Assembly: GCA_036769985.1 (NCBI GenBank)
Contig: DAIPKA010000011.1
Coordinates: 44,818-108,817 of the forward strand
DNA from: Candidatus Hydrogenedentota bacterium
Lineage (GTDB): Bacteria > Hydrogenedentota > Hydrogenedentia > Hydrogenedentales > SLHB01
Reading direction: 5' to 3'
Length of the DNA stretch: 64,000 nt
Shown: positions 6,267 through 52,424 of the stretch, piece by piece
Position numbering within the stretch: position 1 is the stretch's first letter
Layout: each line of letters opens with the position of its first letter
The notes under the pieces: model-generated
Seen by the model: the letters and a program-made list of their open reading frames with translations, nothing else
What the model was told of the DNA's origin: nothing
Databases searched by the model: none
Translations under genes and position numbers: made by a program

Positions 6267-6455
6267 ACTCGCCGCTCGCTATCCTGCCGACAGGCCTAGG
6301 TCCTTTGCAAACACCTGCGTTCCGGGCGATGGGGCTTCCCTTACGCGGCGTCTGGTCTGCTATACTCGGCGCAGAGGCCGCGGGCGCGCTTCAGGCGCGG
6401 AGAGCCCGAGGCCCGCTGTGTTCGAGTGTTCCGAGGGAAGGTGTAACCAACCGGC

Positions 6456-7580: not shown

Positions 7581-7623
7581 GGATGCCACCCTATCTCCTT
7601 AAATGGCTAATCGTTAAATGGTT

Positions 7624-9200: not shown

Positions 9201-10702
9201 TCGGTCGCCTCCGTCGTGCGCGGCGTCGCGCCGATCCTATCAGCCACGATATCTCGGATGGACTCGAACACGATCTCCGCCTTCCGCTCGATGCCGGCGT
9301 TGGTCATGTGACAGATATCGTCGAAACACTCCGATCCTCCACTTAACCGCTCGGCCACCGGGGCGTAGACGGCCCCGACCTCATCGCAAAGTTTCTTGAT
9401 TTCGCGATTGAGTTGATCGAGCGCGCGGCGATATGTCGCAAAGGTAACATACCGGCCGCCCCAATCGCGCATAAACGTGTACTCGAAGTAGTCTCGTTCG
9501 GCGCGCGACAGGCCGGTCTTGGCGGGGACCGCGAAACTGCACAGGACCATTCCGACGCCGGACTGCTGTGCCGCGTTCGCGATCGCGGCCATATGCGCCA
9601 ACGTTGTAGTCTTCGTCAAGCGCGTCACATCCTCGAGGGGCACCAACCACGCGTTGAGGTAGTCGTTCAGCGCCGCCGACCGCCGCACCAGTCGACGCAA
9701 AGGCGTAGCTTCATTCAGGTACACCGGGAACACGCCATGACAGAGATCGTTGACGGCATTGTAGGCCACGAGCAGGTCGGGGTCGAGCGCCAGGAAATCC
9801 GGCAATCGCAACCACTCCTTGAAGACGCTCATACCGGCGATTCCACAGTTGATCACCTCAATGGATTCCGTCTCAAAGGACTCGCGGAGTCTGCGCTCGA
9901 GGAGATTCGGATAGGTGTCCGCGTGCGTGGGGCCTTCTTCGGTTGTCGAGCCACCGATACAGACCACGCGGAACACCCCGGGAGGTTTGGGCAGCACGAC
10001 ATCGTCATCGCGGAATCCCACGTTATTCGTCCAGAAGTCCTTGCCTTCTCGGCTCACGCACGGTTTGTACACGAAGAAGGGCGCTTCCCACACCAAACGC
10101 TCCGACGTCGTGGCACCGGGGCCGGCCGGCTCTGCCACCAACACGGCCGCCGTCTCGCCATCGTGGAGCGGGTAAATTAGGACGGAATCGGCCTCGCCGC
10201 CCACGGATTGCGCATCGCGGGCGAGGATCTCGGGCCGGCCGCTTTCGATGGCCTGAGCCAAGTTTCGCCGGACAATGATGTCCGTGTAGGCACCCACGAT
10301 CTCCTTGAGTTCTGCCGGCGCATCGGTGCTCCACCCCCGGGCATACACGGAACGCAGGTTCGCCGACGCATCGGCAACGACGACGCGAACGCCGTACGAA
10401 TCCGCGAACATGCGTCGTTCAAGATCGGTGAGCCCTTCGAAGACGCTGAGCCGGCGCGATTGCACGGTCAACCGGTCCGCGAAGGCCGGCGGTGTGGGCA
10501 AGGCGTCCCGGGGTGGCGGGGATCCTTCGATATCCTCGCCCGAGGTCCACATCACGGCGTCGCCACGTTCGAGCACCAGGGGATTCGAGCGCTGTATGGC
10601 ATGCCATCGGAACGCGTGATAGCACTCCAGTCCGAGGAAGAGGATCAGCGTCCACAGGAGGGCCAACGACAAGACAAACGCTATACGGGCCGCCCTTCTC
10701 AT
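9197..10702 (-). CDS. membrane-anchored SGNH/GDSL-family hydrolase, paralog 2 (tandem duplicate of 7719-9200)
   Basis: The protein from MRRAARIAFVLSLALLWTLILFL onward aligns with paralog 1 along its length. Shared motifs are FFVYKP, TNNVGFRDDDVVLPKP, VVCIGGSTTEEG, VINCGIAG, YNAVNDLCH and DICHMTNAG. The ATG at 10702 overlaps the TGA of the upstream GT-C gene. The ORF-track start at 11047 lies inside that GT-C gene. Confidence 0.7.
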   Translation of the reverse strand: MRRAARIAFVLSLALLWTLILFLGLECYHAFRWHAIQRSNPLVLERGDAVMWTSGEDIEGSPPPRDALPTPPAFADRLTVQSRRLSVFEGLTDLERRMFADSYGVRVVVADASANLRSVYARGWSTDAPAELKEIVGAYTDIIVRRNLAQAIESGRPEILARDAQSVGGEADSVLIYPLHDGETAAVLVAEPAGPGATTSERLVWEAPFFVYKPCVSREGKDFWTNNVGFRDDDVVLPKPPGVFRVVCIGGSTTEEGPTHADTYPNLLERRLRESFETESIEVINCGIAGMSVFKEWLRLPDFLALDPDLLVAYNAVNDLCHGVFPVYLNEATPLRRLVRRSAALNDYLNAWLVPLEDVTRLTKTTTLAHMAAIANAAQQSGVGMVLCSFAVPAKTGLSRAERDYFEYTFMRDWGGRYVTFATYRRALDQLNREIKKLCDEVGAVYAPVAERLSGGSECFDDICHMTNAGIERKAEIVFESIRDIVADRIGATPRTTEATE

Positions 10703-12897: not shown

Positions 12898-13068
12898 AGA
12901 GGCCTCCGGTGACGCTACGCCTACAGGACACAAGAACGGCAGCCCCAGGTCGGACCTGCCGCTACGGCCGAGCCATTCTACCAACCTATTCCTTGAAAGG
13001 AATGATCGCATTTGGAATAATGGCGATGCAACAAGACGTGTCTTCCGCGGCCAAGTATCCCACACGAT

Positions 13069-14316
13069 TTGGAGTGCATACGTAGATTGTCTGGTGCTCT
13101 CAGAAATGCGACGCTGGCCGTAGGCTCGGTCCTGCTGGCGTTTGTATTAACACTGGCCGCTGATCACGTGGTGGGCGCCTTTGCCCCCACACCCACCCTC
13201 CCCGGAAGCATGGAACTCCTGTTTCCGCCCAACGCCGATCAGTCTTACGAGAGCCTTGATTTCTCCTACACGGCCCACATCAACTCACTCGGCCTGCGCG
13301 AGCGCGAGATCGGCAAAGAGCGAACAGAGGCATACCGCATCATCGCCATCGGCGATTCCTACACGTACGGATGGGGCGTCGAAAGCGAACAGACCTGGCT
13401 TCGCCTGATCGAAGAGAGCCTTCGCGGCGCAGGACTCAACGTCGAGACCATTAACATGGGCAAGCCCGGGGCTGGTCCTCCCGACTACGCCGATCTGGCG
13501 GAGGAAGTCGTTCCCCTGTTCCGCCCGGATCTCGTCCTCGTCGGCATGCTGCAAGGGAATGACCTCGCCGCGGCCGGTCCCGAAGTGATCGAGGAGGCCG
13601 CCGAGACATTCCTCGATAAGGTCCGTGGGCTCTATCCCCATTCGATCCGACTCATCGAGGACATGCGTCTGAGCCGCGATTACGCCTCGCGCACGCAGGA
13701 GATGCGCCCTCCTCAGAAGAGTTCGGCCGAGGATAACCGCCGTTGGACGGCGAACACGGCCAAGGAGTTCCTCGACGGAATGACGCCCGAGCATCGCGCG
13801 CGGTTCGACGCCTTCGACGATACGGTCAAGGAGGCGTTCCTGGCAGGACGGCTCAATCCGTACATGGTCGACCTGGCCATGCAGAATGCCCGTTTCTATT
13901 GCGGCACCTTGAACCTCGACGATCCCTGGACCCAGACCTGTCTTGAGCGAATGGGACACCACCTGGCCCGGATCAAGCGAGTGGCCGATTCATACGAGGC
14001 CGAGGTGCTCGTGCTGTCCATTCCGGATGGCCCATACGTGAACGCCGCCGCCGTCCGCAACATTCGCCGGGTCGGTTACGAGGTGCCGGACAACATTGTG
14101 GACTCCGACGCGCCGGACACGGCCATCCGCGAGGCCTGCGGCCATGCCGGTGTGCCGTTCCTCACCGTCACCCCTGCATTCAGACAACGCCGAGACAATC
14201 CTGGCCTGTTTTTCGAGCTCGACGGCCATCTGACCGCCGAAGGACACCGCCTGTATGCCGAGTCGCTGGCCCCGCTTCTCCTCGAACGGATCCGGAAACA
14301 CGCGCCGATGCGCTGA
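13069..14316 (+). CDS. membrane-anchored SGNH/GDSL hydrolase, member 3
   Basis: SGNH blocks are present: IIAIGDSYTYGWG (block I), NMGKPGAG (II), QGNDL (III), DGHLTAEGH (V). There is an N-terminal hydrophobic anchor. The annotated start is a TTG at 13069; the exact start is uncertain and the first codons are AT-rich. Confidence 0.65.
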   Translation: MECIRRLSGALRNATLAVGSVLLAFVLTLAADHVVGAFAPTPTLPGSMELLFPPNADQSYESLDFSYTAHINSLGLREREIGKERTEAYRIIAIGDSYTYGWGVESEQTWLRLIEESLRGAGLNVETINMGKPGAGPPDYADLAEEVVPLFRPDLVLVGMLQGNDLAAAGPEVIEEAAETFLDKVRGLYPHSIRLIEDMRLSRDYASRTQEMRPPQKSSAEDNRRWTANTAKEFLDGMTPEHRARFDAFDDTVKEAFLAGRLNPYMVDLAMQNARFYCGTLNLDDPWTQTCLERMGHHLARIKRVADSYEAEVLVLSIPDGPYVNAAAVRNIRRVGYEVPDNIVDSDAPDTAIREACGHAGVPFLTVTPAFRQRRDNPGLFFELDGHLTAEGHRLYAESLAPLLLERIRKHAPMR

Positions 14317-14327
14317 GGCCCTGCAGC

Positions 14328-15503
14328 ATGCCTGGAGATGCCATGGTCGATGCCAATCCGCCACAACGGCCGCCTATGGGATGGAAGCAATCCCTCGTCT
14401 ACGCCCTGTTGCCGGTGATCCTTGCCTTTGCCGTGCTGGAGGCGGCGGCGCGCATCGTTGAGATCTGGAGACCGCCCATAACGGTCGACCTCGGCCAAGG
14501 GTTCGGCCCCGAAAGCCGGCTCTTCGTGCCCAAGCAAGGCCATCCCGCGACCATGGTCACCCATCCCGACAAGACCCTCGCGTTTCGCAACCAGGCCTTC
14601 GAACGTCGGAAGCCGCAGGGGACCATGCGTGTCGTCGCCTTAGGCGGATCGTCCGTGAACTACCTCGACTACGAGTTTTCGGTGCTCAAGGAACGCCTCG
14701 AGGCCGCACTAGCACCCCGGTTCACGAACGTCGAGATCATCAATTGCGGCGGACTCTCGTACGGTAGCCATCGCCTCGTGATTCTCGCCGCCGAGGTCAT
14801 TGCGTACGAACCCGACCTGGTGCTCATCTACTCGGGCCACAACGAGTTCGAGGAAATCCAGCAGCTCGAGTTGGCCGACCTGCGCGCCGTGCCCATCCAG
14901 CGCGCCCTCTCCCACTCGGCCCTGTTCCGCTTCATTCGCGACCAATTCGCCGACCGACGCATTGCCGAACTGGAGGAGGATCGCGATCAGCGGAACCTGG
15001 CAACGTCCGTGCCCGACGCCTCGAAGGCGTGGATGTATCGGTTTTCCGAAGAGGAAATCACGGAACGCATGACGGCGTTCAGGACCAACCTAGGCCGGAT
15101 CATCGAGCTATGCCGGGAGCACCACGTGCCCGTCATCATCGGCACGGTACCCTCGAACCTGATCAAGCCCAGCCTTCCGGGAAAGGACGGACACCGCTAT
15201 CAGGAAGCGGAGGACCTCTTCGGCCGGGGGGAGTTCGAGCGTGGGCTCGCCATCGCACGCGAGGTCTTGCGGACCTCTTCCCCGCGCCATCAGTCCTCCG
15301 ACGAGGAGAACGCCGTAATTCGCGCAGTGGCCAGCGAATACGGCGTGCCACTGGCCGATGTCGAGGCCGCCGTTGTCGAGGCCGAGCCGCACCACGTGCC
15401 CGGCGAGACGCTTTTCAGCGACCACTGTCACCTGAATCCGGCTGGCAACGAGATCCTCCGCCGAGTGTACGAGGCCGAAATCCTCCGCTTGTTCCGGGAA
15501 TAG
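14328..15503 (+). CDS. membrane-anchored SGNH/GDSL hydrolase, member 4
   Basis: SGNH blocks are present: VVALGGSSVNY (I), INCGGLSYGS (II), YSGHNEF (III), DHCHLNPAGN (V). There is an N-terminal TM (LVYALLPVILAFAVL). An alternative start at 14343 (MVDANPP) has a GGAG 6 nt upstream. Confidence 0.65.
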   Translation: MPGDAMVDANPPQRPPMGWKQSLVYALLPVILAFAVLEAAARIVEIWRPPITVDLGQGFGPESRLFVPKQGHPATMVTHPDKTLAFRNQAFERRKPQGTMRVVALGGSSVNYLDYEFSVLKERLEAALAPRFTNVEIINCGGLSYGSHRLVILAAEVIAYEPDLVLIYSGHNEFEEIQQLELADLRAVPIQRALSHSALFRFIRDQFADRRIAELEEDRDQRNLATSVPDASKAWMYRFSEEEITERMTAFRTNLGRIIELCREHHVPVIIGTVPSNLIKPSLPGKDGHRYQEAEDLFGRGEFERGLAIAREVLRTSSPRHQSSDEENAVIRAVASEYGVPLADVEAAVVEAEPHHVPGETLFSDHCHLNPAGNEILRRVYEAEILRLFRE

Positions 15504-34381: not shown

Positions 34382-35332
34382 TCAGCTCTCCGGATCCGCA
34401 ACGCGTGTGGGGCCGCTCCAGCGCGCGTGCGGCGAGCCCGCGTCGCGCGCGACGCGACACAGGCGCTCCATGTCGTTGGCATCAAGCAGCGGCGTGTCCG
34501 CCAAGGCGAAAGGCCTGTCCAGTTGCGCGTACTTCGCCGTGCACAGATTCGAGAACGCCAGGAGATCGTGCCGCGTGCAGTGGCGGAACGTCTCGGCGAC
34601 GAATCGCGCGACGCGGCGTACGGACTCCTCATCGGCCGTGTAGCCTGGTATGATCGGTGTGCGCACCCAGACCTCGACGCCGGATTCATCCATGGTTCGC
34701 GCGGCGTCGCGCACGCGGTCGAAGGCCACGCCGGTGAAGGCGCGATGTCGTTCCGGATCCACCGTCTTGATATCGATGAGCACGAGGTCGGTCCATTGCA
34801 GCGCCGCTTTCAACGTATTCTCCGTGGCCACGCCGCAGGTGTCGAGGGCCGTATGAACGCCGCGTTCGCGTAGCGCCCGCAGCACGGCCGTAGCGGCCTT
34901 CGGCTGGAGTAGCGGCTCGCCGCCCGACAACGTTACGCCGCCACCGGACTTGGCGTAGAACGCCGCGTCCTTGAGTAACGTCTCGACGAGATCGTCCACG
35001 CCCATCCGGTGGCCGTGGATTTCGAGGGCGGCGGACGGACAGAAATCGACGCATGTGCCGCAACCTCGGCACCGGCTCCGGTCGATCGCGATTCCACTCG
35101 GTTCGGCGCGCAACGCCCCCTCCGGGCACACGTCGACGCAGCCGCGATCGCCCAGGCACCGGCCGGCATGCCAGACGACCTCAGGCTCGGGCCGGATGGA
35201 TTCCGGATTGTGGCACCAGGGGCATCGCATAGGACACGCCTTGAAGAACACCGTCGTGCGAATGCCCGGCCCGTCCTCGGTCGAAAACCGCTGGATGTTG
35301 AAGAGGGTCGCTTCGATGGACGTGGCCGTCAC
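34382..35332 (-). CDS. glycyl-radical enzyme activating enzyme (radical SAM, with two auxiliary 4Fe-4S ferredoxin-like motifs)
   Basis: FNIQRFSTEDGPGIRTTVFFKACPMRCPWCHN is a CxxxCxxC radical-SAM motif of the PflA type. Two Cx2Cx2Cx3CP motifs (CLGDRGCVDVCP and CRGCGTCVDFCP) follow, as in activases of non-PFL GREs. The GTG start at 35332 overlaps the GRE stop (GTGA). Confidence 0.85.
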   Translation of the reverse strand: MTATSIEATLFNIQRFSTEDGPGIRTTVFFKACPMRCPWCHNPESIRPEPEVVWHAGRCLGDRGCVDVCPEGALRAEPSGIAIDRSRCRGCGTCVDFCPSAALEIHGHRMGVDDLVETLLKDAAFYAKSGGGVTLSGGEPLLQPKAATAVLRALRERGVHTALDTCGVATENTLKAALQWTDLVLIDIKTVDPERHRAFTGVAFDRVRDAARTMDESGVEVWVRTPIIPGYTADEESVRRVARFVAETFRHCTRHDLLAFSNLCTAKYAQLDRPFALADTPLLDANDMERLCRVARDAGSPHARWSGPTRVADPES

Positions 35333-37722
35333 CGACACGGTGCCTCCCGAGCGATGATTTCCTCCTGGATCTCGCGGCCGAGATTCACGAAGTATGCGTT
35401 GTAGCCGGTGACGCGAATGATAAGATTTCGAAACTCGTCGGGATTCCGCTGGGCCTCGCGCAAGGTCGCGGCATCGATCATGTTGATCTGCAATGCCGAA
35501 CCGCCCTCGACGCAATAGCCGCGCAGGAAACCGGCCAGCTTCTCGACGTGTTCGGTGTCGCGCACCAGCGACGGCGGCAGCGAGATCGTATGCGACGCGC
35601 CATTCGGGATGACTTCGAGGCCGAGGTCGCCCACGGCGCGGGCGGCGGCCGTTGGGCCGGCTCTGTCCATGCCCGGCACCGCCGCGACACCATTCGAGAG
35701 GTACGTGCCGCGCGTGCGGCCATCCGGTGTTGCCGAGGTGAGCGGCGCATAGGCGATGCCATAGTTCCACGAAAGATAGCCGCCCCGATAGCGTCGCTTC
35801 GTCAACGGTGTCTCCAGCGTGGCGGCCTCCTCCGCCCACCAGTGCGTCAAGTTGTGCGCCATGTTGTCGGCTTCCGGATCATCGTTACCGTACTTGGGCG
35901 CTTTGTTAAGCAAGACCTGCCGGAGAAACTCGTCGCCGTCGAAGTTGCGATCGACGGCGCGGAGGAGTGCCTCCATGGACACGCGCTTCGCCTCGAAGAC
36001 GAGCGTCTTCACGGCCGACAGGGAGTCGGCGGCCGTCGCGAGGGCGACGCCCTCCACGGTGATGTAGCTGAACCGTGCGCCCCCCGCCGTGACATCACGG
36101 CATCCCTCGATACACCCGCCGACCAGCGCCGACAGATAGGGCGTAGGCTCGAACCGCGCGCGCGTCGTGTCCGCTTGATTGTTGAGCTCGACGAGCCGCC
36201 GCAGGCAGAACGACAACTGCGTGCGGAATGCGGCCTCGAACTCCGGCCACGTGCGCATGGCGCGCGGATCGGGTGTCCGAGGGCCGATCTGCTTTCCGGA
36301 GGCCTGATCGCACCCTTCGAAAAGCGCCAACTCGACCGCCTTGGCCAGGTTTAGGTTCACGTCCACCGTGCCGGACCGATCATCGCCCTGACGCGTGTTT
36401 TCGAGGCATCCGACCGGCGCGTAGTCCCAGAGGTCGACCTCCGGCAGGCCCTGCCAGCGCAGGCCGCGCATGGATGTTTCGTCGAAATTGAGCAGAAACG
36501 GCGCGCCCTGCGCCCGAGACAACAACTGGCACACGCGCGTCAGCAGGCGATCCGGTGTGCGCGCATGCAGGCGGACGTTCGGCTTGGGCTCAAGGAGGTT
36601 GAGCTCCTCGATGACGTCGAGCAAAAGGTAGGTGAGGTCGTTCGCCCGGTCCTCGCCATCGGGGCCACAGCCCGCCAAGGTGATGAGTTGACCGAACGAC
36701 GAGTTGATGCCCTGATGGCGGCCGACACGGCCTTGGTAGTCGTAGGCGTAGTTTGGTTTGATGAAGAAGCACCGGACAAACTCGCGGGCGTCGTCGCGTG
36801 TGAGCCGGCCCTCGGCAACATCGCGCTGGTAGTAGGGCCACAGGTACTGATCGATTCGTCCGAAGGACACGCCGGCCCCCGGATACGACTCGCTTGTGAG
36901 CACGAGCATGTGCGTCAGCCACAGCGCCTGAAGTGCCTCGTGGAATGTTTCCGCCGGCGCCCACGGTACCTTCCGGCAGACGGCGGCGATCTCGCGGAGT
37001 TCGGCGGCGCGAGCCGGCGCCGCGCCCAACGCCTGCCGTTCGGCCTCCGAGGCGTACCGGTCTGCCAGCGCGCCGGCCGCACGACACGCGATGGAAAAGG
37101 ACTCCAACACGTCCCGCCGGGCGGGATCCGGCTCGGAGTCCTGGGCGCGGCGTATCGCTTCGACGATGCCGCCGAATCCGATCCGGAGCACCTTCGGATA
37201 ATCCGGAATCAGATGGCCCGGCACCGCGCCGCAGTTGCCGAGTCCGAGATTCGACGTATCCGAAGCGGCCATCCGGAACGCTTCAGCGGCTTTCGCGCGT
37301 TGTCTGGCTTCCGATCGTGTCAGGCACAAGGACAAGGCCGAGTTGAACTGCCCGCCGACGATGAGCTCGCCTTCCAGAATGTCCACGGGCAAGTGGTGCG
37401 CGAGCACCTCGGCAAAGAACAGCGCCACGCGCACCGGCAGGGGCCGTTCCCAGAAACCGTTCGGCAACGGAACCACGCGCGCGGCGGCACATAGCGAATC
37501 CTCGTAGGCCTTCAGAAACGGCAGTATCTCCGGCACGATCGTCCAGCTCGCATACCGGTACACCGTGTCCCAAGGAGTACCGGTCGTGAACGGCATCACC
37601 TCGTTCCGGAATGGCCGTGTCTCGAACGAGAAGTACTCATCGCGCAGGCGTAGGATCCGATTCGAGAGGGCATCGGAAGGATTCCAGCACGCGGCGCGGC
37701 GCGATTGGGTGACGATGGCCAT
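35329..37722 (-). CDS. glycyl radical enzyme, PFL-like fold, eliminase/dehydratase type (substrate unknown)
   Basis: It is 797 aa. The C-terminal glycyl radical loop is IIRVTGYNAYFVNL (an RVxGY variant). The active-site thiyl loop PVGCLENTRQG carries the Cys-x-Glu dyad typical of GRE 1,2-eliminases (glycerol dehydratase, CutC, HypD). Its size matches the dehydratase clade. Confidence 0.85.
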   Translation of the reverse strand: MAIVTQSRRAACWNPSDALSNRILRLRDEYFSFETRPFRNEVMPFTTGTPWDTVYRYASWTIVPEILPFLKAYEDSLCAAARVVPLPNGFWERPLPVRVALFFAEVLAHHLPVDILEGELIVGGQFNSALSLCLTRSEARQRAKAAEAFRMAASDTSNLGLGNCGAVPGHLIPDYPKVLRIGFGGIVEAIRRAQDSEPDPARRDVLESFSIACRAAGALADRYASEAERQALGAAPARAAELREIAAVCRKVPWAPAETFHEALQALWLTHMLVLTSESYPGAGVSFGRIDQYLWPYYQRDVAEGRLTRDDAREFVRCFFIKPNYAYDYQGRVGRHQGINSSFGQLITLAGCGPDGEDRANDLTYLLLDVIEELNLLEPKPNVRLHARTPDRLLTRVCQLLSRAQGAPFLLNFDETSMRGLRWQGLPEVDLWDYAPVGCLENTRQGDDRSGTVDVNLNLAKAVELALFEGCDQASGKQIGPRTPDPRAMRTWPEFEAAFRTQLSFCLRRLVELNNQADTTRARFEPTPYLSALVGGCIEGCRDVTAGGARFSYITVEGVALATAADSLSAVKTLVFEAKRVSMEALLRAVDRNFDGDEFLRQVLLNKAPKYGNDDPEADNMAHNLTHWWAEEAATLETPLTKRRYRGGYLSWNYGIAYAPLTSATPDGRTRGTYLSNGVAAVPGMDRAGPTAAARAVGDLGLEVIPNGASHTISLPPSLVRDTEHVEKLAGFLRGYCVEGGSALQINMIDAATLREAQRNPDEFRNLIIRVTGYNAYFVNLGREIQEEIIAREAPCR

Positions 37723-37918: not shown

Positions 37919-39067
37919 ATGGGAAAGCCAACCCCTATCTACGAGTGTATCAAGCAAGATCTGCGTGACAGGATCGACTCCGGTGAGTTAGCCGAAGGCG
38001 CCTCGGTGCCTTCGGAATACCAGCTCGCCGAGCAGTTGGCCGTCAGCAGACACCAGACGCGCCAAGCCTTGCGCGAACTTGAACTCGAAGGGTACATTCT
38101 CCGTTCGCAGGGCCGTCGCTCGGTGGTGGCGCCGGCGAGCCGGAGGGCTCGGGCCGTTTCGGTGCCCGGGCCCGGCACGGTGGCCGTCGCGCTCCAGCAG
38201 CTTGACACGACTCACGTGCGCCGGATCTTCGAGGGGTTCGTGGCTCAGGCCGCTCTCCACGACGTGCAATATGTCCTGTACAGCCTTCGGTTCGAGCCGG
38301 AGGAGGAGCTCGACTTTCTGCGGCGGGTTCACGGGGCGGGATTCGCGGGTCTTATTGCCTGGATCCATAATGACCGTGTGGAGATTCGGAGGTCGCTCGA
38401 GGCCTGCCTCGGCTCGCATTTTCCAGTGGTGCTGGTGGATCGGTTCTTGCCGGGTCTCGAGACGGACTATGTGGTGACGGACAATGAGATGATCGGCTAC
38501 CGTTTGACCCAGCACCTCATCCAGCGCGGCCACGAACGAATCGGCTTCATCGGAACGCATGACGGGGCCTCGAGCGGCGCCTTGCGGTTCCAGGGGTATC
38601 GACGCGCGCTGAGAGAGGCCGGACTTGGATTCCACCAAGGCTTCTTCGGCCACATCCACACCGACTACGTTGCCGCTGCCGACACCGTCAAGAGCATTAT
38701 GTCCTTCAAGTCTGCGCCGACGGCTTTCGTGTGCATTCACGACCTATTTGTCCGTCAGCTTGTCGAGGCGCTCAAGCAGATCGAGTATCGCATACCGGAG
38801 GACATCGAACTGGCCATGGTGGGGGATGAGCGCAATGCCGTGGCTATTGGTGTTCCGGCCTTCACATTGTGCCAACCGAGTTTCGAGATTGGTTATCAGG
38901 CGACGGAAATCCTTCTCCGTCGCATCGAAGGTATGGATACAGCGGCGGAGCAGCGACGCCTTGCGCCGGTGGCGGCCTTGGCCTCAGGCCGCGACCGCGA
39001 ACTCAGCGGCGCGATGTCCGGCCGGCCAATCTGGCGCGATCACAGCAAGACCGCGTCGAAGCCGTGA
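37919..39067 (+). CDS. transcriptional regulator: GntR-type winged-helix HTH fused to LacI-type periplasmic-binding-protein-like sugar-binding domain
   Basis: The N-terminus [54 protein letters not shown] is a GntR HTH. The rest is a Peripla_BP-like domain (DGLIAWI.., FPVVLVDR.., IGFIGT...). An in-frame GTG at 37901 is an alternative start. Confidence 0.75.
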
Positions 39068-39093
39068 CGCCAAAAGGAGAGGATTCGGGTGTG

Positions 39094-40044
39094 ATGAAGA
39101 AAAGCATGGGCTTTACGCTGATTGAGCTGTTGGTCGTCATCGCCATCATTGGCATTCTCGCGGCCATTCTGTTGCCGGCCCTGGCGCGTGCGCGCGAGGC
39201 CGCACGACGCTCGAGTTGCGCCAACAATCTCAAGCAGATGGGTATCGTGTTCAAGATGTACGCCGGCGAGAACGCGGATGAGTTTCCGACGCTACGGATC
39301 ATCACGAGCAGCGACAACGAAGTGGAGTCGACCCGGTGCAATCGTTTCCAGGTCGGCACGATTTGCGATGGCCCACAGGTCTATCCGGAATACCTGACCG
39401 ACGTCAGCATTCTCTGGTGTCCTTCCGATCCCGACGGAGAAGACCGCGCCCGCGACAACTGGTTCTACGGGCCCGGCGACGGCACTTTCGATCCCTGCTC
39501 GATCGACCCGGATTCCTACAACTACATGAGTTGGGCGTTCCGCCCGGAGGACTATCTGATCGGCACCGGCGGCGACAATGCCCAGGATCCGCAGATCGGC
39601 CGCGACATTTCGCCCAACCTGATCACGGCCGTGGCGGAGGTACTGGCTTTCGCCACCACCGTGACGTTCTCGAGCCCGCCGGAGGCCATCCAGCGCCTGG
39701 TGGATCTGTACACCAACCCGGTGGAGTTCTACCATGAAGAGCGCGGCAATGTGGTGATCCAGCGACTCAAGGAAGGCGTCGAGCGGTTCCTGGTTGAGGA
39801 CGTGGCCGATGCGTCCGCCACCTCGGTAGGTCAATCCGAAATCGTCACCATGTACGACTCGATTACGTCCAAGCCGATCACGGGCGGCGCCTACGGCTTC
39901 ACGACGTTCAATCACGTACCCGGCGGCGCCAATGTGCTCTACATGGACGGTCACGTCGAGTTCGTGAAGTACCCATCGAAGTACCCGTGCAGCACGACCT
40001 GGGCCTTCATCATGACCTTCGCGTACGACATGTCCGGTTCCTGA
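39094..40044 (+). CDS. prepilin-type N-terminal cleavage/methylation domain protein with DUF1559 (H-X9-DG) domain
   Basis: [48 protein letters not shown] is the hallmark N-terminus of planctomycetal DUF1559 pseudopilin-like proteins. The C-terminal [10 protein letters not shown] is an H-X9-DG-like motif. A good RBS (AAAGGAGAG) precedes the start. Confidence 0.8.
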
Positions 40045-45098: not shown

Positions 45099-45125
45099 TT
45101 AGCACTCGACATCATGGAGTGCTAA
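45099..45125 (-). promoter_or_regulatory. CIRCE operator (TTAGCACTC-N9-GAGTGCTAA), HrcA binding site
   Basis: A perfect match, ttagcactc gacatcatg gagtgctaa, lies 10 bp upstream of the hrcA start codon. Confidence 0.9.
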
Positions 45126-45316: not shown

Positions 45317-46441
45317 ATGCGAATCGGCTTCGACATCAGCCCCATTGCGCCCGGCCGCACAGGGATAGGCCAGTTCTGCTATTACCTTCTCAAAGGACTG
45401 ATGGATCTCGAGTCCGGCGATGAATTCTTCGGTTTCTCCTCCGGACGTTCGCGACCCGATCTCTCGGACCTGCGCCCGCACGTCTCGGGTTACCATATGC
45501 CCGTGCCCACGCGTGTGCTCTACCGCGTGTGGAGTGCCGTCGGTCGCCCGCGCGTTGACCGTTGGCTGGGCGGCGTCGACGTGTACCACGCGACGAACTT
45601 CTTTCTGCCGCCCACCGCATCCGCCCCCCGAGTACTGTCCCTATACGACCTATCGTTCCTGGTGCGCCCCGCGCTGTGCAGCCCGAAGATCGTCGGCCCC
45701 TTCTCGCGCGGTGTGCCCCGTTTCGCCCAAGCGGCCGACGCCATCGCGGCCTGTTCGGAAGCGACCAAGCGCGACATCGTCGAGCGCCTCGGCATTGCCC
45801 CCGACAAGGTGACGGTGACCTATGGCGCGGTGGCCGACGGGTTTGGGCCTCTGGATCCTGAGCAGGTGCGGGGCGCGGTGACAGCGCGCTACGGACTCGA
45901 GGCGCCTTTCCTTCTCTTTGTCGGCACCCTCGAGCCGCGCAAGAATGTCGTGGGGCTGTTGAAGGCTTTCGCCGCCGTGTCCCATCGGATTCCCCACACG
46001 CTGGCGCTGGTTGGTCCTTCGGGATGGGGCACCGGGCCCATCATGAAAGCCCTGCGGCCGCTCGAAGCGCAAGGGCGGGTTGTGCGCATTGGCTACCTTC
46101 GAGGCCATGAGGAGTTGGCATGGCTCTATGCGGCTGCCCGTGCTTTCGTGTTCCCGTCCTTCTACGAAGGCTTCGGCCTGCCCGTGCTCGAGGCGCTCAC
46201 CTGCGGATGCCCCGTGGTCACATCCAAGGTTTCCTCGCTGCCGGAAGTTGCCGGCGATGCGGCCGTGTATGTGGATCCTGAGGACGTCGACAGCATCGCC
46301 GATGGCATCCTTCGGATAGCGGAGGACGATGGATTGCGGCAATCGCTGAGTGAGAGGGGTCTCGTTCAGGCGCGGCAATTCTCGTGGCGTCGGTGCGCGG
46401 AGACCACGATGGGCATCTACCGGAGGGTGGCGCGGTGCTAG
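45317..46441 (+). CDS. glycosyltransferase family 4 (GT-B, Glycos_transf_1)
   Basis: The C-terminal GT4 core is LLFVGTLEPRKNVVGLLKAF...VFPSFYEGFGLPVLEALTCGCPVVTS, which includes an EX7E-like motif. The start was chosen at MRIGFDISPI. Confidence 0.8.
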   Translation: MRIGFDISPIAPGRTGIGQFCYYLLKGLMDLESGDEFFGFSSGRSRPDLSDLRPHVSGYHMPVPTRVLYRVWSAVGRPRVDRWLGGVDVYHATNFFLPPTASAPRVLSLYDLSFLVRPALCSPKIVGPFSRGVPRFAQAADAIAACSEATKRDIVERLGIAPDKVTVTYGAVADGFGPLDPEQVRGAVTARYGLEAPFLLFVGTLEPRKNVVGLLKAFAAVSHRIPHTLALVGPSGWGTGPIMKALRPLEAQGRVVRIGYLRGHEELAWLYAAARAFVFPSFYEGFGLPVLEALTCGCPVVTSKVSSLPEVAGDAAVYVDPEDVDSIADGILRIAEDDGLRQSLSERGLVQARQFSWRRCAETTMGIYRRVARC

Positions 46442-47547
46442 TGCTTCTCGACGGATTGCAGGCCGGCAATCGTAGCGGAACCGGACGGTACACCACAGAA
46501 CTCGCGCGTCGGTTGCCTCACGTCGCGGGCGATCTCGACCTGAGAATTCTCTGGCCCGACACGCAGCCGTGTCCCGACATCGGCCCGGCGAGCGAGGGCG
46601 TGTTCATGCGGTGTGCGGCGGGTACGCCGGCGCGGCGGCTCTACACGGAGCACATCGGCATACGAGCCCTTCAACGGGAACTGCGCGCGGACCTTGTTCA
46701 CTTTCCAGCGTCCGTTGCGGGCCTTCTCGCCGCCCGTGGCTCGATTGTCACCGTGCATGACGTGAGTTTCCTGCGCCATGCCGAGTGGTTCCGCCCGGGA
46801 CGCGCCGCCTACTACCGCCTCGCCGTTCGTCGCAGCGTGGGGCTCGCGTCGCGCGTGATAGCCGATTCCGAGGCCACGGCGCGCGATCTCATGGAGCTGG
46901 CAGGTGTCTCGCGAGACCGAATAGACGTGGTCCCTCTGGGCGTGGACGCGGCCTATCGACCGGCCGATTTGGCGGAGTGCGATCGCGTCCGCGCTCGGTA
47001 CGCATTGCCGGCCCGGTTCTTCTTGTATGTAGGCACCATCGAGCCCCGCAAGAACTTGGCGCGTCTCGTCGACGCCTGGTCGCGGATCGCCGAGTCCTGC
47101 GACGCCGACTTGGTGTTGGCGGGGCGCGAGGGATGGCGCATGGCGGCCCTGCGCGAAGCGATGGCCCGCAGCCCACGCCGCAACCGGATCCATCTTCCCG
47201 GTTTCGTGCGTCATGAAGACCTGCCCGGCATGTTGGGCGCGGCCCAGATCTTCGTCTGGCCGAGTCTGTACGAAGGATTCGGCTTGCCGCCCCTCGAAGC
47301 GATGGCTTGCGGCGTTCCCGTAATCACCTCCAACACATCGAGCCTGCCCGAGGTGGTTGCCGATGCGGCCATCACGGTGGATCCCTACGATGTCGAGGCC
47401 CTGGCGCAGGCCATGGCACAGTTGGCCCAGGACAGGGCGATGCGCGATACTCTCCGTCAGCGGGGCCTGCAACGCGCGGCCTTGTTCTCCTGGTGCCGGA
47501 CAGCCGAGTTGACGGTGGATGCCTACCGCAAGGCATGCCCGGTGTGA
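46435..47547 (+). CDS. glycosyltransferase family 4
   Basis: [20 protein letters not shown]...[30 protein letters not shown] start overlaps the upstream TAG. The ORF-track ATG at 46384 lies inside the upstream gene. Confidence 0.8.
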
Positions 47548-47566
47548 CACCCGACCGAGGTGACGA

Positions 47567-48664
47567 TTGAAGATCCTGCACGTGTACAAGGATTTCGACC
47601 CGCCGGTGCACGGCGGCATGGAGCGGCACATGGCGCTCATGTGTCGCTTCCAGCGGCAGTGGGCCCACGTCGAGGCGCTGACGTGCAGCCGCTCGCTGGG
47701 CACCCGCGTCACGGAGCGGGACGGCACCCGCGTCACGGAAGTCGGCGAGTTTGGGCGATTCCAGAGCGCACCGGTGTCGCCCCTATTCCCGTGGTACATG
47801 CGCCAAGTGAAGGCGGATGTCGTGGTCGTTCATGCCCCCAATCCTACGGCCGAGATCGGGTGGCTCATGGCGCGTCCCTCCGGGCGACTGATCGTGCGCT
47901 ACCAGAGCGATGTGGTCCGTCAGGCCACGGCGATGAAAGTGTACGCGCCGCTCCAAATGACATTCCTCCGGAAAGCTGCTATGATTCTCCCATCATCTCA
48001 GCAGTATCTCGATACGTCCCCGAGCCTCCAGCGCGTGCGAGATCGATGTCGCGTGATTCCACTCGGGATTCTTCCCAAGGAATTCGCCCTCCGAGATCCG
48101 GCGCGCGTTGAGGCGCTTCGAGCGGCGTACGGGGGTGGGTTTGTCTTGTTTTCCGGACGGCATCGCTACTATAAGGGTCTCGAGTTTCTTGTCCGCGCGG
48201 CCCCGCGCATCGAGGCGCCCGTGGTCGTGGCCGGCGCAGGGCCCGAGCGTGCGCGCTGTATGGCCTTGGCGCGCGCATTGAACGTGCGAATCGAGTTCCC
48301 GGGCCCGCTAGATCAGGAGGATCTCGTGGCCCATCTCCATGCGTGCGACGTGTTTGTGTTCCCCTCCGTGGCCCGGAGTGAGGCATTTGGCCTCTCCATG
48401 CTCGAGGCCCAGGCGTGTGGCAAGCCCGTCGTTGCCACGACGCTCGGCACGGGCGTCGAGTTGGTGAATCTACACGGCCAGACCGGTCTCAATGTGCCGC
48501 CGCGGGATCCGGAGGCCTTGGCCGATGCCGTGAATGCCCTGCTAGAGGACGAGGCACGGCGCGATGCGATGGGACGGTTCGCCCGGGCGCGCGTGGAGGG
48601 CGAGTTCCACGCCGAGCGGATCGCGCGCGCCGAGTTCGACGCATACCAGGAAGTGCTTGGATGA
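47567..48664 (+). CDS. glycosyltransferase family 4
   Basis: MKILHVYKDFDPPVHGGMERH, then VLFSGRHRYYKGLEFLVRA...VFPSVARSEAFGLSMLEAQACGKPVVAT. It contains an in-frame 8-aa tandem duplication (RDGTRVTE twice). Confidence 0.8.
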   Translation: MKILHVYKDFDPPVHGGMERHMALMCRFQRQWAHVEALTCSRSLGTRVTERDGTRVTEVGEFGRFQSAPVSPLFPWYMRQVKADVVVVHAPNPTAEIGWLMARPSGRLIVRYQSDVVRQATAMKVYAPLQMTFLRKAAMILPSSQQYLDTSPSLQRVRDRCRVIPLGILPKEFALRDPARVEALRAAYGGGFVLFSGRHRYYKGLEFLVRAAPRIEAPVVVAGAGPERARCMALARALNVRIEFPGPLDQEDLVAHLHACDVFVFPSVARSEAFGLSMLEAQACGKPVVATTLGTGVELVNLHGQTGLNVPPRDPEALADAVNALLEDEARRDAMGRFARARVEGEFHAERIARAEFDAYQEVLG

Positions 48665-49767
48665 GTACGCAACAGAATTGGTATCTCATTTTCGCCTACG
48701 CGCTCGGCGTGTCCTTTCTGGTATCGATTATCCTGACGGACCTGATCCGGCGTCTGGCCATCCGGTGGGACGTGCTCGACTATCCCGGCGAGCGCAAGGT
48801 GCACCAGGCGCCCATGCCGCTCATGGGCGGCGTGGCCATTGTCCTGACCTTCTACGCCGTCATCATTGTCCACTTGCTGGGCCTTCTGTCGGCGCAACGA
48901 CTGGGCGATGACTGGCTCAATGAGAACATCCTGTCGTTCCTGGGCACTCACGTGTGGCTCAAACTGGCGGGCATATTCCTTGGCGGCGCGGTCATCTTCG
49001 TGTTGGGCCTGGTCGACGACCTCAAGGCGCTCAAGCCGGAGATCAAACTGGCCGGCCAGATCTTGGCCGCGCTCATCTTGGTGTTGAGCGGGATCCGCGT
49101 GGATCTCTTCATTCCCAACGAATGGATCTCGATGCTCGTCACCCTGGGCTGGGTGGTGATGATGACCAACGCCATGAATCTGCTCGACAATATGGACGGG
49201 CTGAGTGGCGGCGTGGCCGTGATCTCCGCGTTCTCCTTTTTTCTATGCATATGGCCACATGGCGACGCCTTCGTGTGCGTGTTGCTGATGGTATTCGCCG
49301 GCTCGGTGGCCGGATTCCTGTACCACAACCTTAATCCCGCCCGGATCTTCATGGGCGACGCGGGGGCCATGTTCTGCGGCTATGTACTGTCTACCGTGGC
49401 CGTGCTTGGCACATTCCATACGGAGGCCACGCCGTCACGCGCCGCCGTGGCCGCGCCGATCCTTGCGCTGGCAGTGCCCATCTTCGACACGCTGAGCGTC
49501 ATCTTCATCCGTTGGCGCCGAGGCGAGTCCATCATGAAGGGGGACAAGCGCCACTTCTCGCACCGGCTGGTCGACCTGGGCATGTCGGCGCGACAAGCGG
49601 TCGAGTTCATCCTGCTGGTGGCCGTCGTCACGGGGCTAGGCGGCGCGTTGTTGCCGCAAGTCGGGCCGACCGGCACGGCGATCATCTTGGCGCAGACTGC
49701 CGGGGTGTTCCTACTGATTGTCTTGCTCATGAACGCCGGAAAACGATCGGGAGAACCGAAAGAATGA
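48661..49767 (+). CDS. polyprenyl-phosphate N-acetylhexosamine-1-phosphate transferase (WecA/WbpL/MraY family, PNPT)
   Basis: There are ten or more TM helices. The conserved cytoplasmic loops are MTNAMNLLDNMDGLSGG (an NxxNxxDGxDGL-type motif) and HHNLNPARIFMGDAGAM. The ATG overlaps the upstream stop (ATGA). Confidence 0.8.
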   Translation: MSTQQNWYLIFAYALGVSFLVSIILTDLIRRLAIRWDVLDYPGERKVHQAPMPLMGGVAIVLTFYAVIIVHLLGLLSAQRLGDDWLNENILSFLGTHVWLKLAGIFLGGAVIFVLGLVDDLKALKPEIKLAGQILAALILVLSGIRVDLFIPNEWISMLVTLGWVVMMTNAMNLLDNMDGLSGGVAVISAFSFFLCIWPHGDAFVCVLLMVFAGSVAGFLYHNLNPARIFMGDAGAMFCGYVLSTVAVLGTFHTEATPSRAAVAAPILALAVPIFDTLSVIFIRWRRGESIMKGDKRHFSHRLVDLGMSARQAVEFILLVAVVTGLGGALLPQVGPTGTAIILAQTAGVFLLIVLLMNAGKRSGEPKE

Positions 49768-52424
49768 CTAACAAGCCACATGCTGCGAAACCGGTGTCCG
49801 TCCGAGTGGAGAGCGCGGAGCCGATGCCTCTGTGGCAACGCATCCTACGAGAGCCGGTGGCCCTGTGTCTGACGGTGCCCGTGGTGCTCAGGCCGTGGCT
49901 GGACGGCATCACCTATCCGACGGATAACTTCTACTTCGTCTGGTACCTCACGGCGCTGTTCGCCGTGTGGGCGGTGCAGTTGCTCCTGCGCGGCGGGCGG
50001 TTACGGGCCGGCGCCTTCGTCGCAATGCTCGCGGCCTTCCTCGCCGTCGCCATCCTGACTGGACTCGGCACCATCCAGGTGAGCACCACCTACCGCATGA
50101 TGCTCCTCTGGGCCAGCTACTTCTTCCTCTTCGTCGTGGTGACGAACGGCATCGAAACCGAGCTGGGCGTGGGTATTGTCCTTGGCGCCGTGGTCGTCAC
50201 CTTTCTGGCAGAAAGCCTTTGGAGCCTATTGCATCTCCGGTATGTGCTCCCCTTCGTCCGCGACATGGTACAGAAGGATCCCCGCCTGCTCGTGCAGTAC
50301 TTCGGCACGGAGGAATTGACACCCGAGCTCGCCCATCGCCTCAATTCGAATCGAGCGTTCGGATCGCTCCTGTTCCCGAACGCCCTCGGCGCGTTCTTGG
50401 TCGTTGGGCTTCCCTACGTCGTGGCCGGTTTGTACAGCAGCCTGGTCGCGTTGCGCGACGAGAGCCGCCGGGGCCCGCGGGCCGAAGGATCGGTAGGCCA
50501 AGCCGTGCTGGCGGGCCTGGCGACCTTCGTTGTCGCGGTGGCGACGGCGTTCTTCCTGTTCACCTTCCTCGCCTTCTTCGCCTACGAGGGCGATTCATGG
50601 ACGGAGCATCCCGTGGCCTTCGGCCTCTACGTAATCGTGTTACCGCTGGTCTTGGCCCTGATTCCTCTGCTCGTGGCCCGGTTTCGCGGCCCGCGATTCT
50701 GCGGCCTAGTGGTTCGGGCCGTGGTCTTCTGTGTGTCGTTCGTGCTGGCGCCGCTGGGACTGTGGTTCAGCTATTCACGCGGCGCCATGATGGGCTTGAC
50801 GTTGGCCGGCCTCTTCACGGGCCTCTTGCTGCTCATCGCCCAGGGCCGGCACCGCGCGGCACACGGCGCCGCGAAGAGCGCGGCCGTGGCTTCGGCCCTA
50901 CTCGTTGCCGGACTGCTACTCTCGAATCCGAAGGGATGGGCTCAGGCCGTGGAAGAGAGCGCACAGCCCGCGCCCGTCGAGGTCGGACTGCCGCAGGTGT
51001 CCACAGAACTCCCCACCGAAGACGCTGAGGTCGGTGAGCCGGTCGCGGACAATATCCCTGGCGGCGGCACGCTGGTGATTGAGGGTCGACGTCTTGGCGT
51101 GAGCGACCTGACAAACCTCGGTTCGCTGCGGAACCGGATCTCGTACTGGCGGACGGGCCTGAACATGGCCAAAGCCCACTTCTGGACCGGCGTCGGTCTA
51201 GGCAACTTCCGAGCAGCCTATCCCGTCTACCAACCCCTAGGCGCCATGGACGTCCGGATGGCCCACAACGACTACCTCCAAACCCTATGCGAAACAGGCC
51301 TATTCGGACTCATCGCCCTGCTGGCGTTCTGGGCGTACTTCGCGTTTTGGGGCGCTGCGCGCATCGTGGCCGAGGCCGACGGGCAACGCCGGGCCATCCT
51401 GGCGGGATTGTACGCCGGGGCGCTGGCCTTCCTGATCCATTCCGGCGTCGATTTCAACTTTTACAATCCATCCCTGGTCTTCTATCTCTACCTGCTGGCA
51501 GCTTTGTTCTACGTGATGGTCTCGCCGCGCCCCGAGCCGAGGCCCGGACGCCTGAGCCACCAACTGCTGGCCGTGCCGTTTCTCGTGGCGGCGGCACTCG
51601 CGGCAGGCATGGCCCTGCGCGTGTTCTTGCCGGACTACATCCTGGGGGGACGCCAGATCGTGAATGTGGGCGACGACAAGGCCCGTATGATGAAATACCG
51701 CGTGGGTGAGTTCTTCCTGAAGGATGTCCGGGATAGCCAGACCTCCGGCAAGCCCGCGGCTGAGGCGATCGATGCCTTGGCCAATCTCATTCCGCTGCGC
51801 AGCCAGCTCGAGTCCTTCGGCCAGATCTGGGTACCATCGAGCGTCCCGGGCGGCCGCAATCGGCGCATTGCCTCCGGGGAACCCGTGCCGCCGGGCGCGT
51901 TCCTCGTCGTGACGCAGCCGACGCTCGCGCGCCAGGTGGCGGTGCAGGCCATCACACGCTGGCTCCAGGCCATCAAAGAGGCCGACGGCATCTTCCCGTA
52001 CGATCCCGAGACGGCTGCGCACCTTGTGGCGTGGTACGATCTGTTGCTCACCACAACCGACGATCCCGAAGAGAAACGCGAGTACACTCTGGCCTACCTC
52101 GAATGGGCCGCCGAAGGCGTCAAGCGAAGTCCCATGCAGGCCTGGCATCACCAATGGTACGCGAAAGGTTTGTGGCTGCGAGCCAATCTCGAGCATGGCG
52201 CCGCGAAGGACGAGTTCCTTCGTCAGGGGCTGGACGAGTTTCGCCGGGCCACGGAGCTCTATCCCACATCGCCGTCCTCGATGTGGGAATATGGCGACGC
52301 GCTCGGCAAGTTTGGCAACTACCTCATCAAGACCGATCGCGAGGCGGAGGGCCGCGAGTTCATCCGGCAGAGCGAAGAGGCGCTAGCACGAAGCAAGGAA
52401 CTCGCAGACTACCGGCCGGCGTAG
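49764..52424 (+). CDS. O-antigen ligase / Wzy_C family polytopic membrane protein with ~450-aa C-terminal soluble (TPR-like) domain
   Basis: It is 886 aa. There are ~12 TM helices and a large periplasmic loop carrying MAHNDYLQTLCETGLFGL (the WaaL/PglL/Wzy_C signature H..Y). A long helical-repeat C-terminal region follows. Confidence 0.7.
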   Translation: MTNKPHAAKPVSVRVESAEPMPLWQRILREPVALCLTVPVVLRPWLDGITYPTDNFYFVWYLTALFAVWAVQLLLRGGRLRAGAFVAMLAAFLAVAILTGLGTIQVSTTYRMMLLWASYFFLFVVVTNGIETELGVGIVLGAVVVTFLAESLWSLLHLRYVLPFVRDMVQKDPRLLVQYFGTEELTPELAHRLNSNRAFGSLLFPNALGAFLVVGLPYVVAGLYSSLVALRDESRRGPRAEGSVGQAVLAGLATFVVAVATAFFLFTFLAFFAYEGDSWTEHPVAFGLYVIVLPLVLALIPLLVARFRGPRFCGLVVRAVVFCVSFVLAPLGLWFSYSRGAMMGLTLAGLFTGLLLLIAQGRHRAAHGAAKSAAVASALLVAGLLLSNPKGWAQAVEESAQPAPVEVGLPQVSTELPTEDAEVGEPVADNIPGGGTLVIEGRRLGVSDLTNLGSLRNRISYWRTGLNMAKAHFWTGVGLGNFRAAYPVYQPLGAMDVRMAHNDYLQTLCETGLFGLIALLAFWAYFAFWGAARIVAEADGQRRAILAGLYAGALAFLIHSGVDFNFYNPSLVFYLYLLAALFYVMVSPRPEPRPGRLSHQLLAVPFLVAAALAAGMALRVFLPDYILGGRQIVNVGDDKARMMKYRVGEFFLKDVRDSQTSGKPAAEAIDALANLIPLRSQLESFGQIWVPSSVPGGRNRRIASGEPVPPGAFLVVTQPTLARQVAVQAITRWLQAIKEADGIFPYDPETAAHLVAWYDLLLTTTDDPEEKREYTLAYLEWAAEGVKRSPMQAWHHQWYAKGLWLRANLEHGAAKDEFLRQGLDEFRRATELYPTSPSSMWEYGDALGKFGNYLIKTDREAEGREFIRQSEEALARSKELADYRPA

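Follow-up and report, generated by a model that had tools for sequence, protein, structure and literature searches.

In a 64,000-nt stretch of DNA from a Candidatus Hydrogenedentota bacterium (positions 44,818 to 108,817 of contig DAIPKA010000011.1; hereafter the window), a glycan-assembly operon of five genes ends in a gene, g5, whose 886-aa product is very probably a periplasm-facing transferase of undecaprenyl-pyrophosphate (Und-PP)-linked glycans belonging to the WaaL/PglL superfamily. The g5 type is a phylum-specific variant, set apart by an extra pair of transmembrane (TM) helices, an α/β insert and divergent repeats that resemble tetratricopeptide repeats (TPR), of widespread and uncharacterised Wzy_C+TPR enzymes. 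The acceptor of the glycan may be protein, a reading that we favour only tentatively.

The operon occupies the forward strand at 45317-52424 as five consecutive open reading frames (ORFs), g1 to g5, placed as first annotated, and the JGI gene call for a metagenome contig 100% identical to the locus contains the same five genes. Pfam and the JGI call both bear out the gene content that the initial annotation had read from the letters: three family 4 glycosyltransferases (GT4), one polyprenyl-phosphate N-acetylhexosamine-1-phosphate transferase (PNPT) of the WecA/MraY type and a single 886-aa Wzy_C protein. The genes, and the parts of g5 discussed below, are as follows.

45317-46441, + strand: g1, GT4 glycosyltransferase, 374 aa (Pfam Glycos_transf_1, E 5e-30, and Glyco_transf_4)
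46435-47547, + strand: g2, GT4 glycosyltransferase, 370 aa from GTG 46435 or 368 aa from GTG 46441 (Glycos_transf_1, E 2e-34)
47567-48664, + strand: g3, GT4 glycosyltransferase, 365 aa, TTG start (Glycos_transf_1, E 1.5e-35)
48661-49767, + strand: g4, WecA-like PNPT, 368 aa (Glycos_transf_4 PF00953, the MraY/WecA family, E 3e-33)
49764-52424, + strand: g5, probable Und-PP-glycan transferase of Wzy_C/WaaL fold, 886 aa (Wzy_C, E 7.5e-20, residues 325-520)
50922-51299, + strand: large periplasmic catalytic loop of g5, residues 387-512 (conservation, hydropathy topology, AlphaFold2)
51552-51644, + strand: extra C-terminal TM helix of g5, TM15, residues ~597-627 (hydropathy, positive-inside counts, AlphaFold2 helix 597-627)
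51645-51920, + strand: family-specific α/β subdomain of g5, residues ~628-719 (AlphaFold2 strands and helices at 638-716)
51921-52421, + strand: divergent TPR-like helical repeat of g5, residues 720-886, seven helices (3.5 TPR-like repeats; D741, P745, W781, R788 and P790 conserved)

One gene with a WaaL-type core and a family-specific C-terminal domain

The concern raised at the outset, that the large C-terminal domain could be a frame artefact with two genes in place of g5, is ruled out by full-length homologues and one confident structure model, and the domain is part of a single gene. Among 5.8 billion proteins, about 110 matches were full-length relatives of 820-1012 aa, 28-60% identical to g5, the named ones being described as 'O-antigen ligase family protein' of Candidatus Hydrogenedentes/Hydrogenedentota. 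The AlphaFold2 model, based on an alignment of 103 sequences, covers the whole protein with a pLDDT of 90.5 and a pTM of 0.90, the pLDDT being low only at the loop 390-430; the high pTM would imply a fixed packing between the domains.

The membrane part of g5 has a WaaL-like fold, of the GT-C_B class, and Wzy_C (PF04932) is matched at residues 325-520 with 71.7 bits, against a cut-off of 31.7, as it is in 52 of the 52 relatives scanned. The conserved periplasmic-loop Arg and His residues on which the initial annotation had staked its reading are present: none of the 103 sequences of the family departs from R339, R458 or H501. Further invariant positions include R166, R192, N196, R197, N206, G340, Y461, W462, G476, G478, G480, G512, G515 and, towards the C-terminus, W781; H559, D563, D741, P745, R788 and P790 are near-invariant. 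The catalytic loop itself combines a variable acidic/Pro-rich insert (390-430) with the invariant R458, Y461, W462, GVGLGNF (476-482) and H501. A profile of residues 325-600 finds the WaaL of Cupriavidus metallidurans (CmWaaL) among PDB entries (7tpg_B, E 1.2e-10), with R458 aligned to R265 and H501 to H313, while R339 is assigned by the SRG/TRA motif only. By motif, the R339/R458/H501 set corresponds to R215/R288/H338 of Escherichia coli WaaL and to R224/R298/H349 of Neisseria meningitidis PglL, residues that are functionally required in both enzymes (PMC3643930). The similarity is a distant one, and phmmer with the single g5 sequence yielded nothing above noise in the PDB, WaaL being found by profile searches only. 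Against E. coli K-12 WaaL, neither hhalign with the family profile (probability 0.2) nor hmmsearch with the core hidden Markov model (HMM) found anything; this protein is too divergent, and its residues could thus be mapped to g5 by motif only. Taken together, the single gene and the invariant Arg/Arg/His set give good support to reading g5 as a WaaL/PglL-type transferase of Und-PP-glycans to which a periplasmic accessory domain is attached.

Hydropathy and AlphaFold2 agree on 15 TM helices, with the N-terminus in the cytoplasm and the loop 387-512 in the periplasm. Four further TM helices follow the end of Wzy_C at residue 520 and extend to about residue 627, and through the extra 15th helix the segment 623-886 would come to lie, like the catalytic loop, in the periplasm. 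The appended helical-repeat domain, first put at ~450 aa, was thus overstated: the soluble part comes after the four extra TM helices and comprises 264 aa (residues 623-886), made up of an α/β subdomain and seven helices (719-883) that form TPR-like repeats. An HMM of the α/β subdomain ('ins') matches every Hydrogenedentota member and no homologue of other phyla, and in hhalign alignments the homologues of Abyssobacteria and Omnitrophota are gapped here. Pfam TPR models do not match g5 itself and do so in a few relatives only. As the sole query, the C-terminal domain retrieved 177 representatives among 1.84 billion proteins, and in every full-length match it formed the C-terminus of a protein of ~850-1000 aa. 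As far as sequence comparison goes, the C-terminal domain is a family-specific module; a role in acceptor recognition, as the initial annotation had suggested, is plausible.

The module and its conservation

Within the Hydrogenedentota, the last three genes of the operon form a stable unit. Our comparison set consisted of 37 Hydrogenedentota-type loci, with gene lists for five of them (L001-L005). The PNPT gene g4 lies immediately 5' of g5 in 32 of the 33 assessable loci and g3 lies 5' of g4 in about 29 of 31, with aroQ and/or pepP downstream; the complete order g3-g4-g5-(aroQ)-pepP is found in about 30 of the 33. The core partner of the module among the glycosyltransferases, g3, is 43-76% identical (mostly 62-71%) among these loci and, phylum-wide, g3 and g4 are mostly 60-70% identical, with g5 reaching only 27-60%. 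The other two glycosyltransferase genes are accessory, occurring in some lineages only and always placed between hrcA and g3: g1 stands beside hrcA in L001, L003, L007 and L013 only, and g2 is found in about a third of the related loci. Given this lineage-limited distribution, the conserved core is GT4-PNPT-Wzy_C/TPR, and the variation from one to three GT4 genes across lineages corresponds, by gene count, to a glycan of two to four sugars. The products of g1 and g2 are 40% identical, which points to tandem paralogues. L007 belongs to the closest metagenome-assembled genome (MAG), with 60% identity in g5; there, genes for an Eco29kI-type restriction endonuclease and for a DNA methylase (5033-7030 of that locus) interrupt the row between g2 and g3, so that the two accessory GT4 genes are parted from the core.

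All three proteins carry the EX7E motif of retaining GT4 glycosyltransferases (E284-E292 in g1, E280-E288 in g2 and E272-E280 in g3), and none reaches an NCBIfam equivalog. Judged by its motifs, g4 is a member of the PNPT (WecA/MraY) family: it passes PF00953 with 115.5 bits and contains DD119-120, NxxDxxDG (173-180) and, at 298-302, the H-x-x-H-R element HFSHR, which we take to resemble the HIHHR motif of WecA. Against the NCBIfam model of WecA, it scores 115 bits, under the cut-off of 326.

The tight packing of the genes was confirmed in part. Of the three overlaps reported initially, the ATGA overlap of g3 and g4 at 48661-48664 is exact, and the ones at 46435-46441 and 49764-49767 hinge on the choice of start codon. 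The former measures 7 nt if g2 starts at GTG 46435 and 1 nt with the JGI start at GTG 46441; the latter, another ATGA, exists only with the g5 start at ATG 49764, the JGI start being ATG 49824 (866 aa). Purine runs resembling Shine-Dalgarno sequences lie 5' of both g5 starts, the longer N-terminus is present in ~58% of the homologues, and in L003 and L005, g5 starts immediately 3' of the g4 stop. A 19-nt spacer precedes the TTG start of g3.

Additional copies of g5 occur in two of the loci. L034 (9716-15386) holds two full-length tandem homologues, each with the core, the α/β insert and the TPR; its MAG is titled Bathyarchaeia, probably owing to a binning error. L022 (10001-12274) holds a paralogue which, in 10 kb of upstream sequence, has no PNPT, GT4, aroQ or pepP neighbour, and some genomes thus hold a second, unlinked g5 copy. 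Both the tandem duplicate and the unlinked paralogue would fit a diversified acceptor specificity. Many of the MAGs in L007-L036 that hold an operon of the Hydrogenedentota type bear the titles 'uncultured Nitrospirales/Nitrospiraceae', 'Rhodothermaeota' or 'Bathyarchaeia', which are likely taxonomic mislabels.

The architecture of g5 had been called unusual, and this was not borne out, since Wzy_C proteins with C-terminal TPRs are abundant in phyla of the Planctomycetes-Verrucomicrobia-Chlamydiae (PVC) type. Such proteins, ~620-780 aa in length, are found in Planctomycetota, Verrucomicrobiota, Armatimonadota and Omnitrophota and also among Nitrospirota-labelled sequences (for Verrucomicrobiota, Armatimonadota and the Nitrospirota-labelled sequences, as judged from database architecture), and hhalign relates the Abyssobacteria homologue (probability 100%, E 2e-53) and the Omnitrophota homologue (99.5%) to the g5 family. 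Those of Planctomycetota, Verrucomicrobiota, Omnitrophota and Abyssobacteria share with g5 the N-terminal motif R-P-x-x-x-G, the motifs NR(A/V/I)F(G/S)…PN, RxxYW, AHNDYLQ and H-x3-D, the extra TM helix and a C-terminal domain of TPR type, and they often lie between a PNPT gene and aroQ-pepP. Unlike g5, they have neither the α/β insert (628-719) nor the extra TM7-8 pair, their TPRs are close enough to the canonical form to be recognised by Pfam, and the residue equivalent to R339 is often K or M. The order PNPT-Wzy_C/TPR-aroQ(-pepP) recurs in Omnitrophota (L039, L043, L045 and L049) and Abyssobacteria (L038), and the PNPT-Wzy_C/TPR pair in Planctomycetota as well; a gene order common to several phyla speaks for an ancient, positionally conserved module. 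One 797-aa relative (P0115) carries a different C-terminal non-membrane module, its Wzy_C domain being fused to a Peptidase_M14 zinc carboxypeptidase domain. In the literature that we found, no member of the Wzy_C/TPR clade is experimentally characterised, and nothing relevant turned up on glycosylation in Hydrogenedentes.

Proposed pathway and the acceptor of the glycan

We propose that the module as a whole is a housekeeping, vertically inherited system that would make a lipid-linked oligosaccharide for en bloc transfer in the periplasm. At the cytoplasmic face, g4 would form Und-PP-HexNAc, the sugar probably being an N-acetylhexosamine; g3 would add a second sugar and, in the source lineage, the paralogous g2 and g1 may add up to two more. 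A flippase, presumably encoded elsewhere in the genome, would carry the Und-PP-glycan to the periplasmic face, where g5 would move the glycan en bloc onto a hydroxyl group of the putative acceptor. If the analogy to WaaL and PglL holds, the pyrophosphate would be bound by R339 and R458, with H501 acting on the acceptor, which the periplasmic α/β and TPR-like domain may select or present.

The identity of that acceptor is where the readings diverge. We tentatively favour, at somewhat less than even odds, the side chains of protein Ser, Thr or Tyr, g5 then being a PglL/WsfB-like O-oligosaccharyltransferase (O-OTase) of a distinct clade. A protein is preferred to lipid A-core or to polymerisation because g5 has a predicted periplasmic C-terminal domain, as described for PglS, TPR-like repeats, a TPR motif being described for WsfB and PglL, and the near-invariant H559-x3-D563, and also because its gene lies outside a lipopolysaccharide (LPS)-core locus and no Wzz or Wzx was found in the window or in L001-L005. 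The statement of the initial annotation that the window has no Wzx, Wzy or Wzz holds for the large ORFs by Pfam and for the downstream genes by the JGI Pfam list; more broadly, Wzx, Wzz, Wzc and the outer-membrane polysaccharide export protein OPX have no Pfam match among the large ORFs of the window and none is called in L001-L005.

Among the closest known systems are PglL and PglS of Neisseria and Acinetobacter, general and pilin-specific O-OTases, which have the Wzy_C core and the same catalytic residues as g5. PglS is described with a periplasmic C-terminal domain after an extra TM helix, as predicted for g5 (PMC12800693), and, by its spacing, an H-x3-acidic motif ~55-62 residues after the catalytic His would be common to PglL and g5. 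In PglL, the class-specific residues H400, E404 and P406 follow the catalytic His (PMC3643930), and mutation of E404 strongly reduces the activity, E379 of PglS mattering for activity too (PMC12800693). In contrast to these enzymes, g5 has a C-terminal α/β and TPR-like module unrelated in sequence to theirs and no adjacent pilin-like target, and its relatives are confined to the Hydrogenedentota. Our comparison with PglL draws on Pfam models and published residue numbers; tblastn searches of plasmids for PglL with the catalytic loop of g5 or of CmWaaL found only generic 'O-antigen ligase' genes. The TPR has its own parallel in WsfB of Paenibacillus alvei, a predicted S-layer O-OTase that, like PglL, is described with a C-terminal TPR motif; as in g5, the motif follows Wzy_C and the gene lies in a glycan-assembly cluster, the likeness being one of published descriptions (PMC2943079). 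WsfB differs from g5 in its Gram-positive host and its S-layer tyrosine target. Eukaryotic TMTC and bacterial PMT_2+TPR proteins are likewise multi-pass lipid-linked-sugar transferases with a lumenal or periplasmic TPR, but the likeness is an analogy, as their fold is GT-C_A (PMT_2) and their donor a polyprenyl-phosphate monosaccharide, that of g5 being an Und-PP-oligosaccharide.

Several observations weigh against a protein-directed transferase or soften the case for it. The Pfam families PglL_A (PF15864) and Wzy_C_2 (PF11846), which together with Wzy_C mark the PglL/PglS classes (PMC12645811), have no match on g5 even at E<=10; among relatives, Wzy_C_2 reaches E<=0.01 in one of 52 and in P0027 scores 25.9 bits, under the cut-off of 28.5. 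With these markers absent, g5 is not assignable to the PglL class, and no NCBIfam model matches it either. The equivalence of H559-x3-D563 and PglL H400/E404 comes from spacing alone, and the spacing of the Pro differs (P569). Omnitrophota and Planctomycetota relatives have K or M in place of R339. Pfam scans of the large ORFs of the window yielded no flippase, and no candidate acceptor protein, such as a pilin or an S-layer protein, is encoded beside the operon. No O-OTase structure is among the PDB matches of g5, and a study from 2025 relied on an AlphaFold model of PglS (PMC12800693); with WaaL as the only solved relative, a comparison of folds cannot part a ligase from an O-OTase. Lastly, the title of a work cited as reference 99 in PMC2943079 calls TPR motifs hallmarks of a polysaccharide export scaffold.

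Some of the same observations would suit an O-antigen or 'common-antigen' ligase of the phylum, with WaaL function, that moves a short Und-PP glycan onto lipid A-core and whose TPR docks LPS-transport or other envelope proteins. We consider this unlikely, though it is a serious alternative. The best structural and sequence match of g5 in the PDB is WaaL (C. metallidurans, 7TPG/7TPJ), the PglL-class Pfam markers are absent and the family is annotated 'O-antigen ligase family protein'. Moreover, all MAGs in which long TPR-bearing relatives were seen belong to Hydrogenedentota, Omnitrophota, Planctomycetota, Abyssobacteria and Latescibacterota, phyla generally regarded as diderm, and the conserved, mostly single-copy gene with its housekeeping-like synteny would suit a constitutive step of LPS assembly. 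However, g5 is not a compact, LPS-core-encoded WaaL of ~400-420 aa: at 886 aa, it is about twice as long as E. coli K-12 WaaL (419 aa) or the CmWaaL chain (~403-413 aa), and whereas E. coli WaaL ends directly after its last hydrophobic segment and the characterised WaaLs are without a periplasmic C-terminal domain, g5 adds one of 264 aa. The H559-x3-D563 motif, with its His and Asp 99% and 97% conserved, aligns to S and Q in CmWaaL. The gene adjoins GT4s, a PNPT, aroQ and pepP and not the core heptosyl- or glycosyltransferases, E. coli waaL lying between waaC and waaU, and a TPR has no obvious role in the recognition of lipid A-core.

Somewhat less probable still is a Wzy-type polymerase that joins di- to tetrasaccharide repeats into a conserved envelope polymer, in parallel to MraY-MurG-SEDS and with the TPR as a scaffold for export or chain length. 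The minimal set of PNPT, GT-B and GT-C_B enzymes does mirror the synthesis and polymerisation of lipid II, some Wzy_C relatives (P0119 and P0207) are named 'O-antigen polymerase', and the export-scaffold title mentioned above would fit. Yet Wzx and the polysaccharide co-polymerases (Wzz/PCP), with which Wzy works and usually shares a gene cluster, are missing from the window and from the calls in L001-L005, as is OPX. A polymer would also have to be attached by a ligase or held by an anchor, and the operon has no such gene linked to it. Lineages, furthermore, have between one and three GT4 genes while g5 stays orthologous, and the invariant Arg/Arg/His residues are the set required in ligases and O-OTases (PMC3643930). 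An altogether different acceptor (peptidoglycan, a membrane lipid or the lipid moiety of a lipoprotein), or a C-terminal domain that is purely structural or regulatory, is improbable: the Peptidase_M14 fusion in P0115 suggests that the family explores varied periplasmic partners, and no informative homologues of the C-terminal domain lie outside its own family, but there is no positive evidence, and the literature that we found has no Wzy_C-family enzyme with such an acceptor.

Flanks of the operon and a possible second glycosylation locus

The operon lies between two sets of housekeeping genes, hrcA-grpE-dnaK-dnaJ upstream, divergent from it, and aroQ-pepP-efp downstream. A perfect CIRCE inverted repeat, TTAGCACTC-N9-GAGTGCTAA, is located at 45099-45125, just 5' of hrcA, within a 230-bp divergent intergenic region common to hrcA and the glycan operon, and on the hrcA strand the region also has a σ70-like promoter (45165-45137). 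No intrinsic terminator or convincing σ70 promoter delimits the operon and no terminator-like site was found between g5 and aroQ, so that co-transcription of the operon with aroQ-pepP-efp is possible. We rejected a functional tie to these downstream genes, as aroQ-pepP-efp is an ancient housekeeping arrangement and the products are cytoplasmic.

Further upstream in the window, the following features were recorded.

4029-6266, - strand: PMT_2+TPR membrane glycosyltransferase (Pfam)
6456-7580: GT2+GtrA polyprenyl-phosphate sugar synthase
10699-13065, - strand: PMT_2+TPR membrane glycosyltransferase (Pfam)
34382-37722, - strand: glycyl-radical enzyme (PFL-like + Gly_radical, 35329-37722) adjoining a radical-SAM/4Fe-4S activase (34382-35839)
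38869-40044, + strand: pseudopilin-like protein (N_methyl + DUF1559 (SBP_bac_10)), ~5 kb upstream of the operon

O-OTases commonly target pilin-like proteins such as the last. The first three features belong to a locus at 4029-15503 that also encodes four GDSL/SGNH proteins. The locus that the initial annotation had noted at 4-15 kb is thus confirmed. Its proposal, made from this locus and the operon, that the envelope is glycosylated by two separate routes is consistent with the PMT_2+TPR and GT2-GtrA proteins, and the second route would likewise be TPR-fused and draw on lipid-linked sugars.

Implications

To our knowledge, WaaL-type ligases and O-OTases are not currently separable by sequence, and the known O-OTase classes (PglL, PglS, TfpO and TfpM) come mostly from Proteobacteria. 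A compact, phylum-conserved module that pairs an initiating transferase with a TPR-bearing Wzy_C enzyme is a tractable case in which to ask whether, in the WaaL/PglL superfamily, a TPR domain in the periplasm is a sign of glycan transfer to proteins. A bolder proposal, which we regard as rather doubtful, is that the clade defined by the Wzy_C core, the extra TM helix, the periplasmic TPR-type domain, the H-x3-D motif and a PNPT directly upstream is an unrecognised, deep-branching class of O-OTases responsible for a general and constitutive O-glycosylation of proteins in Hydrogenedentota, Omnitrophota, Abyssobacteria and Planctomycetota. If this were true, the recognition of acceptors by TPRs would have arisen by convergence with that in eukaryotic TMTC and OGT, and the enzymes of Hydrogenedentota, with their additional α/β module, would form a specialised subclass. 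Should g5 turn out to be a WaaL, it would show how the LPS ligases of these phyla depart from the proteobacterial model; should the transfer be protein-directed, the enzymes would be new tools for bioconjugate engineering, and a very large number of entries from PVC-type and candidate phyla that now go by 'O-antigen ligase family protein' would have to be reinterpreted.

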